Origin: Phycisphaerae bacterium
Lineage (GTDB): Bacteria; Planctomycetota; Phycisphaerae; UBA1845
DNA length: 41,748 nucleotides
Reading direction: 5' to 3'
Assembly (NCBI GenBank): GCA_029260025.1
Contig: JAJDDZ010000312.1
Span: 1-41,748, forward strand
Below are positions 28,848-33,377 of this stretch, in pieces. The number at the start of each line of letters is the position of its first letter. Positions within the stretch are counted from its first letter, which is position 1. Under the pieces are notes generated by a model. The model had not been told where the DNA came from and did not search any database. It worked only from the letters and a program-made list of their open reading frames with translations. The position numbers and the translations under genes are program-made.

Positions 28848-28934
28848 GGAGGAGTGGCCGAGCGGCTGAAGGCGACGGTTTTGAAAACCGTTTGGCGGGA
28901 AACCGTCACGGGGGTTCGAATCCCTCCTCCTCCG
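28848..28934 (+). tRNA. tRNA-Ser (anticodon TGA)
   Basis: Acceptor GGAGGAG/CTCCTCC+G, D-arm GCCGAGCGGCTGAAGGC, anticodon arm ACGGT-TTTGAAA-ACCGT, long variable arm, T-loop TTCGAAT. CCA not encoded. Confidence 0.96.
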
Positions 28935-30237: not shown

Positions 30238-30693
30238 CTACCCAGCCTCACCCGCAAGTGTTGCCGGTTGAACACAAGATTCTGCCCGAACGAGGTATCC
30301 CAGGAAACCGCGCGTGCAGTGACCGACCGTCGCCTCGATTGCTACACGGCAACCTTCCACGTCAACAGTCCAAACCGAAACACTGTTCCCGACGCGTAGT
30401 CGTTTTCTCACCCAAGACGCGATGCCACTATCTGACACGTTGCGCAATCTTGCATTCGTAGTGCGTTGCGGAAGCGACGCTTCCATCCCATCAGTTCGAG
30501 GAAGGGAGGCCGTAAACCTCAGGATATGACGCTTGCCCATGTACGGATCAGTCGTCCCCAGTCCACGAGCCGCACGGAAGATCACTTGGAAATGATCCTG
30601 CTGCACTATGTCGAAACAAGGTTGGGCTACAAGCTTCTTTTTTTCCTCTACTTTCTTCTCGACCTTGCCGGTTCTCGGAATCGGAGTCCCCAT
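30238..30693 (-). CDS. PilZ domain protein (divergent paralog of 30867-31262)
   Basis: 'GKRHILRF' (RxxxR) and 'RNVSDSG' (NxSxxG). Aligns by eye with the upstream paralog (W.RKRL / W.KKRL, HCTRGFLGYLV / HCTSGIMGFLV). Confidence 0.65.
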   Translation of the reverse strand: MGTPIPRTGKVEKKVEEKKKLVAQPCFDIVQQDHFQVIFRAARGLGTTDPYMGKRHILRFTASLPRTDGMEASLPQRTTNARLRNVSDSGIASWVRKRLRVGNSVSVWTVDVEGCRVAIEATVGHCTRGFLGYLVRAESCVQPATLAGEAG

Positions 30694-30866: not shown

Positions 30867-31262
30867 TTACTCAGCGGCTTCAAATTGAAACTCGACACCA
30901 ACGAGAAACCCCATAATTCCGCTCGTGCAGTGGCAAACCTTAGCAGGAAGCCAGTCCGTCGGAGTCCCGTCAACGAAGCTACGGACGAAGACCCGACGTT
31001 TGAGAGCGAGTCGCTTCTTCGCCCAGAAAGATAGGCCTCCTCTGGAGACGTTGTGCATCTTAGCCCAAGAAACGCGACCGTTTGCATTCGGATCGAAACT
31101 GAATTCGAGAGAGGTCGAAGACCGAAAACGCTGAGCCTTCCGCTTCCCGTCTATACCGTCCGACGACCCGGTCTCGCGAGCATTTCGAACAAGCCGGCGA
31201 ACCAGAAGCTCTCTACTCTCCCGAGATGTTTCAGTTGTATTTGGCAAAAGTTCCCGGTCCAT
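30867..31262 (-). CDS. PilZ domain protein (c-di-GMP receptor)
   Basis: 'GKRKAQRF' (RxxxR), 'HNVSRGG' (NxSxxG) and C-terminal 'LVGVEF'. Confidence 0.85.
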   Translation of the reverse strand: MDRELLPNTTETSRESRELLVRRLVRNARETGSSDGIDGKRKAQRFRSSTSLEFSFDPNANGRVSWAKMHNVSRGGLSFWAKKRLALKRRVFVRSFVDGTPTDWLPAKVCHCTSGIMGFLVGVEFQFEAAE

Positions 31263-31556
31263 GCGACACCCCACGTAGAGACCCGCCTATACACACTAAT
31301 ATTACAATTTCTCTTTCATTGAGCAGGGCGGTACTGAGAAATGCTGAAATCATCACGAGTCCGAAAAATAACGGATTGTCGGATGGCGCAACGCGCGCCT
31401 GGCCGGCGTGGCGTCGCCAACACCACTGAGGCGCCTTCCTGGACCATCTTCCGCGAACGAGGACGAGCCTCACAGCAACCCCCTAAAAAAGGCCAAACTT
31501 ACCGGACCCTCGCTTGCGCCTGCCGTTTCGTCACGTCCATCGAGTTCTATCGCGTC

Positions 31557-31715
31557 CTAGGGACGCCGCGACCCGCCAATGAAGAACAGCGGAATACCCG
31601 CCAAAATCATGCCCGAACCGAGCATGTTGAGCGGATCGCCTCAGCAGTACGCAAATCTCAGTCCCAGTCCAGCCAGGGGCAAGGCAAGGGCGACCCAGCG
31701 AAGTTTCCCCGTCAT
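31557..31715 (-). CDS. Candidate small membrane selenoprotein, 52 aa (MTGKLRWVALALPLAGLGLRFAYC-U-GDPLNMLGSGMILAGIPLFFIGGSRRP)
   Basis: AGGAG RBS 7 nt before ATG 31715. In-frame TGA at 31643-31641 directly after a Cys codon; the frame continues as a second hydrophobic helix to TAG 31559-31557. SECIS-like hairpin 3' of the TGA. Confidence 0.6.
31596..31636 (-). promoter_or_regulatory. Putative bacterial SECIS element
   Basis: Minus strand: upper stem CATGCTC/GGGCATG with apical loop GGTTC (plus-strand 31608-31626), lower stem ATCCGC(T)CAA/TTGGCGGGT. The loop starts 21 nt after the TGA and begins with G. Confidence 0.55.
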
Positions 31716-31916
31716 TTTTTCACTCCTGATTCATTCCCACGGTATATCGACCATCCAACCCCGGCCTGTTACATTTTGACATCGTTCGCACGCCCGGTAA
31801 CAATATCTCGTCGAGTCGGAGTCCTAATGCGACGGATATGGGATTGCTTTCGGGACCGGGCTGAGATTCCAAAATGGATGGATTGATCAATCGTGAACAA
31901 CGACAAACCCGCTGAG

Positions 31917-32324
31917 ATGCGCGTTGAAATACTCAAATCAAAGCTGCACCAAGCGTGCGTCACACAGGCAGACCTTCACTACGAGGGAAGCTTGGGCGTC
32001 GATGTCGAGCTAATGGAAGCGGTCGGACTCTATCCGCACGAAAAAATCCTCGTTTCCAACATGAACAACGGCGAGCGCCTTGAAACGTACATCATCCCCG
32101 AACCATTCGGCTCGCGCCGGATTATCCTAAACGGGGCTGCAGCTCGCAAAGGGACCGTCGGCGACCGGGTCATTATCATGTCGTTTTGTCATGTGGATGA
32201 ATCCGTTGTTCGCGAAGGCAAGCACAAACCGCGCGTCATAAGGCTTGACGAAAAAAACGAACCCGTCATGCCAATTCCCAAAGCACCGACGACCGAAGAA
32301 ATCGCTGCCATGCTTGAAGACTAA
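31917..32324 (+). CDS. panD: Aspartate 1-decarboxylase
   Basis: 'LKSKLHQACVTQADLHYEGSLGVD' (G-S autocleavage), 'NNGERLETY', 'LNGAAAR', 'GDRVII'. Alternative GTG start at 31893. Confidence 0.95.
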   Translation: MRVEILKSKLHQACVTQADLHYEGSLGVDVELMEAVGLYPHEKILVSNMNNGERLETYIIPEPFGSRRIILNGAAARKGTVGDRVIIMSFCHVDESVVREGKHKPRVIRLDEKNEPVMPIPKAPTTEEIAAMLED

Positions 32325-32396
32325 CGAAAGGCGAAGCCCTAAGTTCAAGTCCTTTGCCCTCCGTTGCCAACGCCGGTTCATGACGCTATCGCCACA

Positions 32397-33377
32397 ATGA
32401 CCGAACCAACAACCATTAAAAACGTCCTCGTCACGGGCGCGACTGGGTTCGTCGGTAGAAACATCGTCCGCGAACTTCTACTGCGTGGCTACAAGCCCAT
32501 CTGCCTCGTGCGAGACGCTGCCAAGCTCCGCAAGCAGCACCCAACAGTCGATCCCGACAGAATCACCCCGATCATTGGCAGCTTGCGCGACGAGAAAGCG
32601 CTCCAACACGCCGCCGACCTTAGTCAAGCTGCGATCCACCTGGTAGGAATCATCATCGAAAGGCGCTTGCGGGGAAGAACATTCGATCGCATTCATGTAC
32701 GCGGCACGATAAACGTCGCAAACGCCGCCAAGCGCGCTGGCATCAATCGTTTCCTCCACATGTCGGCACTCGGCGCAAGACCAGACGCCGTATCGAAATA
32801 CCATCAGACAAAATGGACCGCCGAACAGTACGTCCGCGACACAGACCTCGATTGGACCATATTCCGTCCCAGTCTAATCCACGGACCAGACGGCGAATTC
32901 ATGCAGTTGATGAAGCGGTTCACCTCCAAGCTCATCCCCCCAGTGATTCCGTATTTCGGTTCAGGCGAAGCGAAATTGCAGCCAGTTTATGTCAAAGACG
33001 TCGCAAGATCTTTCGTCGCAGCGCTAAAAAACGATGAAGCGATTGGCCAAGTAATCCCTCTTGGTGGACCTCGTCAATACAGCTGGAAACAGCTCTACAC
33101 CGTGTGTCGAGCAATCATTCCAGAATCCAAACTCTGGAAACCGATCGTCTCTCAGCCTATCCCGATCGCCAAGCTTCTCGCCGCAATATCCGGACCACCC
33201 TTAGCCCTCGCCGAAATCGCGATCCCTTCGGTGGGCCTGCTGCGTTTCGATAAGGGGCAAGTTCAGATGTCACAAGAAGACTGCACCTGCGACCACACCG
33301 TTGCCGAGAAGTCACTGAGCATTACGATGCGAGACTTTGAGGAAGAGCTGGCGATTTACGCTGGCAGAATCAACTAA
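32397..33377 (+). CDS. NAD(P)-binding atypical SDR, complex I NDUFA9-like family
   Basis: 'VLVTGATGFVG', 'IHLVGII.E', 'MSALGA', 'YHQTKWTAE', 'IFRPSLIHG', 'LQPVYVKDVA'. Confidence 0.88.
   Translation: MTEPTTIKNVLVTGATGFVGRNIVRELLLRGYKPICLVRDAAKLRKQHPTVDPDRITPIIGSLRDEKALQHAADLSQAAIHLVGIIIERRLRGRTFDRIHVRGTINVANAAKRAGINRFLHMSALGARPDAVSKYHQTKWTAEQYVRDTDLDWTIFRPSLIHGPDGEFMQLMKRFTSKLIPPVIPYFGSGEAKLQPVYVKDVARSFVAALKNDEAIGQVIPLGGPRQYSWKQLYTVCRAIIPESKLWKPIVSQPIPIAKLLAAISGPPLALAEIAIPSVGLLRFDKGQVQMSQEDCTCDHTVAEKSLSITMRDFEEELAIYAGRIN

Follow-up and report, generated by a model that had tools for sequence, protein, structure and literature searches.

Does the TGA in the middle of a 52-residue reading frame from a planctomycete end a micropeptide, or is it read as selenocysteine (Sec)? 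The question was raised by contig JAJDDZ010000312.1 of a Phycisphaerae bacterium (GenBank assembly GCA_029260025.1; 393 contigs, 88.7% complete), of which positions 1 to 41,748 were analysed; this whole stretch of 41,748 nt is referred to as the window. A preliminary description of its minus strand had pointed out the sequence AGGAG-N7-ATG (31715), an in-frame TGA (31643-31641) next to a cysteine codon, a hairpin behind it and a closing TAG, and had read these as a small membrane selenoprotein overlooked by open reading frame (ORF) callers. The start region, the TGA and the TAG are present exactly as described (Table 1); the ORF called under translation table 11 does end at the TGA, and gene callers register fragments only. 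Taken together, the evidence makes it very probable that the gene genuinely encodes Sec and belongs to a new family of membrane selenoproteins, a judgement in which the function of the protein has no part.

The reading frame across the TGA

If the TGA were a true stop, the locus would specify a 24-residue micropeptide ending in Cys, and what lies downstream would be a second mini-ORF or a regulatory RNA hairpin. Such an arrangement accords with the table 11 ORF, with the hairpin that follows the TGA and with an in-frame ATG located six codons downstream of it in the window. The comparative data, drawn from 96 distinct orthologous sequences (156-nt regions for the tests of reading frames), point in the other direction. 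Entropy at the three codon positions was 1.54/1.25/1.70 bits upstream of the Cys codon and 1.62/1.08/1.67 bits after the hairpin, a set of 36 sequences being in agreement. The five codons that lead from the TGA to the hairpin and the downstream ATG (G-H/D-P-x-x) would lie outside both ORFs, yet they too are periodic (0.96/0.65/1.62 bits). The position of that ATG is a start codon in only 54% of the sequences, and no in-frame position after the TGA is one in more than 62%. Read through the TGA, the proposed frame is open in 96/96 regions, the other two sense frames being open in 12 and 79 of them. The periodicity between TGA and hairpin, the openness of the frame and the lack of a common downstream start rule out a separate downstream mini-ORF. 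In addition, the long forms of the family run for 50-90 further codons in the same frame, and five homologues have Cys in place of the stop. We regard a true stop at this position as very improbable.

The plus strand carries a 181-codon ORF (31341-31886) which overlaps the small gene, and conservation at the DNA level is short, extending over about 100 nt. It might be argued from this that the 181-codon ORF is the real gene, and that the minus-strand pattern is a conserved non-coding RNA or an antisense artefact. The antisense frames, however, are open in 59, 46 and 12 of the 96 regions as against all 96 for the proposed frame, which rules out the plus-strand ORF as the source of the conservation, and the variable sites are the third codon positions of the minus-strand frame. 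The start codon and the Shine-Dalgarno-like motif are kept in orthologues, most of whose start codons are preceded by a purine-rich motif of the GGAG type (34 orthologues, judged by eye and not counted), and Rfam gives no family at the locus. This explanation is less probable again than a true stop, to the point of being far-fetched.

Conservation at the protein level downstream of the TGA, which the preliminary description had suggested looking for, is seen in a codon periodicity that continues past it. The entropy data indicate that the protein is under purifying selection and that protein-coding sequence lies both before and after the TGA.

The hairpin and the selenocysteine machinery

The hairpin noted previously, CAUGCUC-GGUUC-GGGCAUG with the G of its loop starting 21 nt after the UGA, was found as described. 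In an alignment of 36 orthologues its seven stem pairs are formed in 92.9% of cells, compared with 24-46% in controls with the 3' arm shifted by 1-3 columns. Double-sided changes occur in three of the seven pairs, e.g. U-A to C-G or G-C, and C-G to G-C; the covariation score was reached by none of 500 shuffles, and RNAalifold recovered the same helix. Nearly all sequences have a GGU[A/U/C]C loop, at a fixed position. Across the set of 96 sequences the mean third-codon-position entropy is 0.22 bits inside the hairpin and 1.6-1.7 bits outside, synonymous sites being nearly frozen, those of four-fold degenerate Leu and Gly codons included. Third positions which are frozen in the hairpin and free outside it speak for an RNA constraint laid over the coding constraint. 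Judged from these patterns, the hairpin behaves as a bacterial Sec insertion sequence (SECIS) element.

Among the genes of the Sec machinery, selA (573.6 bits) adjoins selB (328.4 bits) in the same genome, selD was detected at 369.2 bits, and the tRNA-Sec gene (selC) at 66.1 bits on contig C195, outside the window contig. All four, which the preliminary description had named as a check on the host, are present and over their curated cut-offs, and selD itself contains one in-frame TGA. TGA is also an ordinary stop in this genome, ending 334 of 1152 stop-to-stop frames of at least 400 codons.

The genome was scanned for a UGA followed after 16-37 nt, the spacing range of bSECISearch, by a stem of at least 5 bp with a GGU[ACU]C loop, the frames being open on both sides. 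Only 11 matches were obtained in 4.1 Mb, including selD, a DsbA-like gene and a DUF3179 gene, the hairpins of which have GGUUC loops 18-32 nt after the UGA, i.e. the same loop as the candidate. The DsbA-like gene specifies a 337 aa protein with SurA_N and DsbA/Thioredoxin_4 domains and the motif F-Q-U-P-Y-C, its Thioredoxin_4 alignment (1.6e-31) spanning U (Sec). The 265 aa DUF3179 protein contains G-W-U-P-L-A, and again the alignment (9e-28) runs across U. Both families are counted as selenoproteins in Table 1 of a 2026 review (PMC13188914).

The UGA of the small gene might also be recoded without being read as Sec, through near-cognate incorporation of Trp, Cys or Arg in a read-through stimulated by the hairpin. 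Three database homologues do have W at this position, and stop-codon read-through stimulated by downstream structures is known. On the other hand, the loop and the spacing of the hairpin match those of three established selenoprotein genes of the same genome, which contains the full Sec machinery; the commonest natural replacement is Cys, giving the classic Sec/Cys pair; and the site follows a Cys, as in the known Cys-Sec (CU) selenoproteins. We place this alternative, at a very low probability, behind a true stop and ahead of an antisense artefact.

On the preferred reading, that of Sec insertion, the ribosome would start at ATG 31715 behind the AGGAG and would meet the UGA (31643-31641) while the mRNA 15-33 nt downstream is folded into the 7-bp hairpin with its GGUUC loop. 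SelB with Sec-tRNA(Sec) would bind the hairpin and selenocysteine would be inserted, after which translation would resume for 27 codons to the TAG. The expected product is a 52-residue integral-membrane helical hairpin, a short form of the family, with Cys-Sec in a tight loop. We infer that the decoding mechanism is canonical bacterial Sec insertion and that it is the protein family which is non-canonical.

Distribution, database homologues and novelty

A DNA search of 40 relatives gave matches in seven, all from the same taxonomic family and always over the stretch of about 100 nt comprising the TGA, the hairpin and helix 2. The seven loci translate in one frame as M...hydrophobic...[YFA]-C-TGA-G-[HD]-P...LG[ST]GM...hydrophobic...basic tail-stop. 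A profile of eight sequences (A1) detected the gene in 65 of the 101 genomes of the host's taxonomic family, with exactly one TGA in 68/69 matches; the sole match which breaks this rule is marginal (E 0.0027). A broader profile of 78 sequences (A3) detected it in 66 of the 101. Homologues with TGA, or a Cys codon, at codon 25 had been anticipated in the preliminary description, and both were encountered: an in-frame TGA in 70/70 of the A3 matches within the taxonomic family, and Cys in five database homologues. Neither this check nor the other two proposed there, on the Sec genes and on the protein downstream of the TGA, refuted the selenoprotein reading.

Genomes of the Genome Taxonomy Database (GTDB), one per species, were scanned with a DNA pattern derived from the invariant columns (Cys codon, TGA, GG, 15 free bases, hairpin core). 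At least 119 loci were found, and among the 80 loci listed 79 encode the protein family. The carriers of the 80 loci are almost all Planctomycetota (Phycisphaerae, Pirellulaceae, Planctomycetaceae, Gemmataceae, an Isosphaeraceae metagenome-assembled genome (MAG), Limnoglobus and Bythopirellula), the others being one Limisphaerales MAG, one MAG labelled Paracoccaceae and three labelled only 'bacterium'. They include the cultured Rohdeia mirabilis Pla163 (member L073), and at least one carrier is both cultured and fully sequenced. The gene almost certainly defines an undescribed selenoprotein family widespread in Planctomycetota.

Two architectures are found among the 78 aligned members. Thirty-eight, like the window protein, are short two-helix forms of 50-63 residues, while 40 are long forms (73-114 residues) with one or two extra helices; a few members are longer still. 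The third hydrophobic helix of the long forms has an acidic residue, mostly Glu, in 22/40, a possible sign of an ion- or proton-binding site within the membrane. A Pirellulaceae member (L066:3624-4619, plus strand) has about 290 residues beyond the membrane core, forming a large, presumably extracytoplasmic domain, and another member (L101:6703-6969, minus strand) has a C-terminal CxxC...CxxC zinc-ribbon.

A HMMER search of 1.84 billion representative proteins with A3 returned 66 matches at E up to 0.001. Fifty-two of these (among P0011-P0067) are proteins of 51-64 residues which align only from profile position 30-32 onward; by this alignment they are the post-TGA halves of long forms, miscalled from an internal Met, and the three examined all start with MLGP. 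The residue at the Sec site was assessed in 13 of the remaining 14 matches. It is Cys in five natural homologues (P0003, P0004, P0008, P0016 and P0017, with CC(G) at the site), Leu in one and Trp in two, the other five having lost both Cys and Sec. A word-indexed collection of 5.8 billion proteins gave one match with the narrow profile and three with the broad one, of which two are called 'hypothetical protein' (one a Trp form) and the third is nameless. For each Cys form there are at least about 20 Sec forms. Since gene callers stop at UGA, public collections contain either the miscalled post-UGA halves or nothing, and with so few full-length matches the family is essentially invisible in protein databases, exposing a systematic blind spot of annotation. 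The authors of deep-Sep state that reliance on Cys homologues is a limit of their method; methods of this kind would tend to miss the present family.

The preliminary description had not recognised the family, and neither did the collections searched. Pfam-A gave no family for the window protein at E up to 10 and noise only for the 78 members at E up to 1, NCBIfam release 20.0 (June 2026) gave no match beyond noise for any of the 78 at E up to 1, and a sequence search of the PDB with the profile gave none at E up to 10. The preliminary description had also cautioned that helix 2 resembles a terminal transmembrane helix of APC permeases. Helix 2 is indeed a generic hydrophobic segment, and the locus could then be what is left, after decay, of some larger membrane protein, for instance the final helices of a permease of this kind. 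The caution found no support, however: the window protein is without a Pfam match, no permease family was found for the 78 members at E up to 1 (among the best 25 of 42 families), the gene stands alone with a start codon of its own in dozens of genera, surrounded by varied genes, and the ORF is under purifying selection. A remnant is the least probable of the alternatives considered, its likelihood being close to nil.

Of the 119 families and subfamilies in Table 1 of the May 2026 review on prokaryotic selenoproteomes (PMC13188914), none is a counterpart of the two-helix membrane protein with CUG[HD]P. No description of the family was found in the literature on planctomycete and Phycisphaerae selenoproteins, bacterial Cys-Sec membrane proteins, selenoproteomes and CUG[HD] motifs, as far as these sources were accessible; table S9 of PMC4807772, which may bear on novelty, and BSepDB lay outside the comparison. 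If confirmed, the family would add to the approximately 119 known in prokaryotes one that differs in kind, being a membrane-buried hairpin of 50-60 residues with almost no Cys counterparts and common across a phylum.

Several observations weigh against a Sec-encoding gene, or against the breadth claimed for the family. The gene was not found with A3 in 35 of the 101 genomes of the taxonomic family, although selA is present in 96 of them. In 400 other genomes sampled evenly across the phylum A3 matched in only nine, eight with TGA and one, marginal, without it, the narrower profile giving seven; the A3 count is a lower bound, since only 13 candidates per genome were scored. Trp occupies the Sec position in P0007 (AW), P0010 (CW) and P0069 (CW), which may be true TGG variants or the product of a gene caller reading TGA as Trp under another genetic code. 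Cys and Sec are both lost in P0005, P0009, P0021, P0030 and P0068, and the scaffold can therefore exist without the pair; two of the five, P0009 and P0021, have N-terminal zinc-ribbons. The hairpin stem is short, and Rfam searches around the locus at E up to 10 gave no SECIS match and nothing meaningful. While the upper stem and GGUNC loop of the proposed SECIS stand by virtue of their spacing, compensatory changes, frozen sites and likeness to other hairpins of the genome, the lower stem (ATCCGC.CAA/TTGGCGGGT) does not: it is paired in 50.9% of cells in the 36 orthologues, no better than in shuffles, and is a feature of the window sequence only. As the hairpin specifies the LG[ST]G of helix 2, some of the conservation seen in the protein may stem from constraint on the RNA. 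The sequencing runs which contain the locus are five DNA runs from two studies, none of them RNA. Finally, no gene neighbour is conserved in 79 loci, the best cluster, of Ser/Thr kinases, being present in at most six.

Predicted topology, putative function and genomic surroundings

AlphaFold2, supplied with the 78-row alignment, predicted a helix at residues 2-22, a loop at 23-27 (Y-C-U-G-D) and a helix at 28-48 with a mean pLDDT of 78. The earlier placing of the TGA in the loop of a helical hairpin, right after Cys, is thus reproduced by the model, whose five-residue loop holds C24-U25. Residues G16, C24, U25, G26 and G33 are invariant in the 78 sequences. The second residue after Sec is His in 70 and Asp in about 18 of the 96 sequences, the loop consensus being [FY]-C-U-G-[HD]-P. 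In a Foldseek search of the PDB no structure passed E 0.001 and only generic helical hairpins came up; the ESM Atlas, queried with the Cys-form relative P0017, yielded only unnamed clusters at 0.90, recognition being below the mark of the tool. A complex prediction with two copies, made from an alignment of natural Cys forms (A5), gave no answer (score 0.02).

The positive-inside rule is used to orient membrane helices. Mean charges in the 38 short forms are +0.87 for the N-tail, +1.29/-0.82 for the loop and +2.24/-0.34 for the C-tail after helix 2, and in the 40 long forms the loop after helix 2 averages +2.58. By that rule the positive charges on the tails place both ends in the cytoplasm. 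The protein is therefore predicted to be a helical hairpin whose C-U-G-[HD] tip sits on the cytoplasmic membrane at its outer (periplasmic) face.

The mercury transporters MerT, MerF and MerC carry a vicinal Cys-Cys in a membrane helix and occur in a context of merR, merP and merA. Like the new family, MerT, MerF, MerC and the MerT-family selenoproteins are small membrane proteins having a vicinal Cys-Cys or Cys-Sec with a Pro a few residues on and a set of soft-metal ligands at the membrane; the CU pair of the MerT-family proteins is documented in a preprint by Haft & Gwadz (bioRxiv 10.1101/2022.07.06.499078). The new family differs from the Mer transporters in having no second Cys pair, no mer operon and no conserved neighbour, and its pair lies in the AlphaFold2 hairpin loop whereas theirs is inside helix 1. 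No match to MerT (PF02411), MerF, MerC or another mer family was obtained for the window protein at E up to 10, nor for the 78 members at E up to 1 among the best 25 of 42 families, and the window shows no mer context, the neighbours being panD, NAD-epimerase and PilZ-like ORFs.

Animal thioredoxin reductase has a C-terminal Gly-Cys-Sec-Gly redox centre on the flexible tail of a soluble flavoenzyme. It shares with the new family a vicinal Cys-Sec followed by Gly, able to form an eight-membered selenenylsulfide ring, but in the new family the motif is the tip of a membrane hairpin without a flavin domain, and there is no homology. SELENOK and SELENOS are anchored by a single pass, with Sec close to the disordered C-terminus in the cytosol and a SECIS of the eukaryotic type in the 3'-UTR; these too are short membrane-anchored selenoproteins, with no sequence relationship to the new family. 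The Cys-Sec dipeptide itself is shared with SaoL, SaoB, SaoC, HgcA, MbdU, Csac_0668 and KCU-star/DUF466 (PMC13188914), several of which are likewise truncated at the CU site in databases, KCU-star and SaoC also being small. None of them is a two-helix membrane hairpin; the CU of the new family has an internal position, with an invariant Gly next to it and His or Asp as the residue after that. None of the 78 members matched SaoL (NF040728), SaoB (NF040727), SaoC (NF040734), HgcA (NF040863), MbdU (NF045648) or KCU-star (NF033934) at E up to 1.

With no conserved neighbour, function can be argued from the motif only. The single most likely role, although we would put it at somewhat less than an even chance, is that the vicinal Cys-Sec together with His/Asp acts at the membrane surface as a ligand or transfer site for a thiophilic metal ion; copper(I) would be a guess. 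A metal site is favoured because published CU dipeptides are rare and mostly in metal-handling proteins, and because His/Asp stands two residues after Sec and the Cys form P0008 has a His/Asp-rich C-terminal tail. CU motifs have been argued to mark heavy-metal handling in the Haft & Gwadz preprint (bioRxiv 10.1101/2022.07.06.499078), and most of the CU dipeptides listed there and in PMC13188914 belong to proteins with a metal-handling annotation (SaoL, SaoB, HgcA, MbdU, a 2Fe-2S protein and some relatives of MerT). Nearly as likely, by analogy with known redox centres, is a membrane-anchored redox relay cycling between selenenylsulfide and selenol/thiol, for which the periplasmic DsbA-like selenoprotein of the same genome could, speculatively, be the partner. 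A function other than these two has a smaller share of the probability.

It is also conceivable, though we think it doubtful, that this tiny membrane family is phylum-wide and almost obligately Sec-containing, with its Cys-Sec-Gly-His centre outside, and represents a new functional class, whether metal-binding or a selenenylsulfide relay. Were this true, it may be one reason why mostly aerobic heterotrophs keep the Sec machinery (selA in 96/101 genomes of the clade). In any case CU-G-H/D at a membrane surface offers a testable handle on selenium chemistry outside soluble redox enzymes.

Table 1. Coordinates of the small gene in the window and of two other selenoprotein genes of the same genome.
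Feature	Position	Strand	Remarks
Shine-Dalgarno-like AGGAG	31723..31727	-	7 nt before ATG; read from sequence
Whole gene, 52 residues (putative)	31557..31715	-	ATG + 23 sense codons, Sec-UGA, 27 codons, TAG
Start codon ATG	31715-31713	-	
Sense codons before the TGA, 24 including ATG		-	MTGKLRWVALALPLAGLGLRFAYC, ending Tyr-Cys
Cys24 codon TGC	31644-31646	-	directly before TGA
In-frame TGA, putatively read as selenocysteine, residue 25	31641..31643	-	invariant in 36/36 aligned orthologues; Cys in five natural homologues
Sense codons after the TGA, 27		-	GDPLNMLGSGMILAGIPLFFIGGSRRP
Stop codon TAG	31559-31557	-	
SECIS core (putative), 7-bp stem CAUGCUC/GGGCAUG	31608..31626	-	apical loop GGUUC at 31619-31615
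Helix 1 (predicted), residues 2-22	31650..31712	-	hydrophobic, conserved P..G..L pattern; AlphaFold2 model
Helix 2 (predicted), residues 28-48	31572..31634	-	hydrophobic, then basic tail SRRP; AlphaFold2 model
DsbA-like selenoprotein gene	G000:C5:4811-5821 = L185:112-1122	-	GGUUC hairpin 18 nt after UGA
DUF3179 selenoprotein gene	G000:C321:10422-11216 = L186:123-917	+	GGUUC hairpin 20 nt after UGA

A scan for terminators and promoters revealed no convincing terminator after the gene, the sole 'terminator-like' match being inside helix 2. Downstream on the same strand are a 135 aa ORF (30867-31274) with a PilZ domain match (1.1e-08) and a 151 aa ORF (30238-30693) without a Pfam family, which BLASTP identifies as a paralogue of the former. 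Upstream and divergent is panD, the aspartate 1-decarboxylase gene (31893-32324, plus strand; 3.2e-42), followed by an NAD-dependent epimerase-like gene (32364-33377, plus strand). Clustering of the ORFs around 36 loci gave no conserved partner; panD is divergently upstream in only 8/36, which points to local synteny and not to a functional link. Members of the Rohdeia-like group have as neighbours, on the other strand, genes for an aldehyde dehydrogenase and for an isocitrate/isopropylmalate dehydrogenase. Over the whole window only two tRNAs reached the Rfam gathering threshold. A tRNA-Ser (anticodon UGA; 28848-28934, plus strand) scored 42.9 bits on the tRNA-Sec model, below its 47-bit threshold, and is an ordinary long-arm tRNA.

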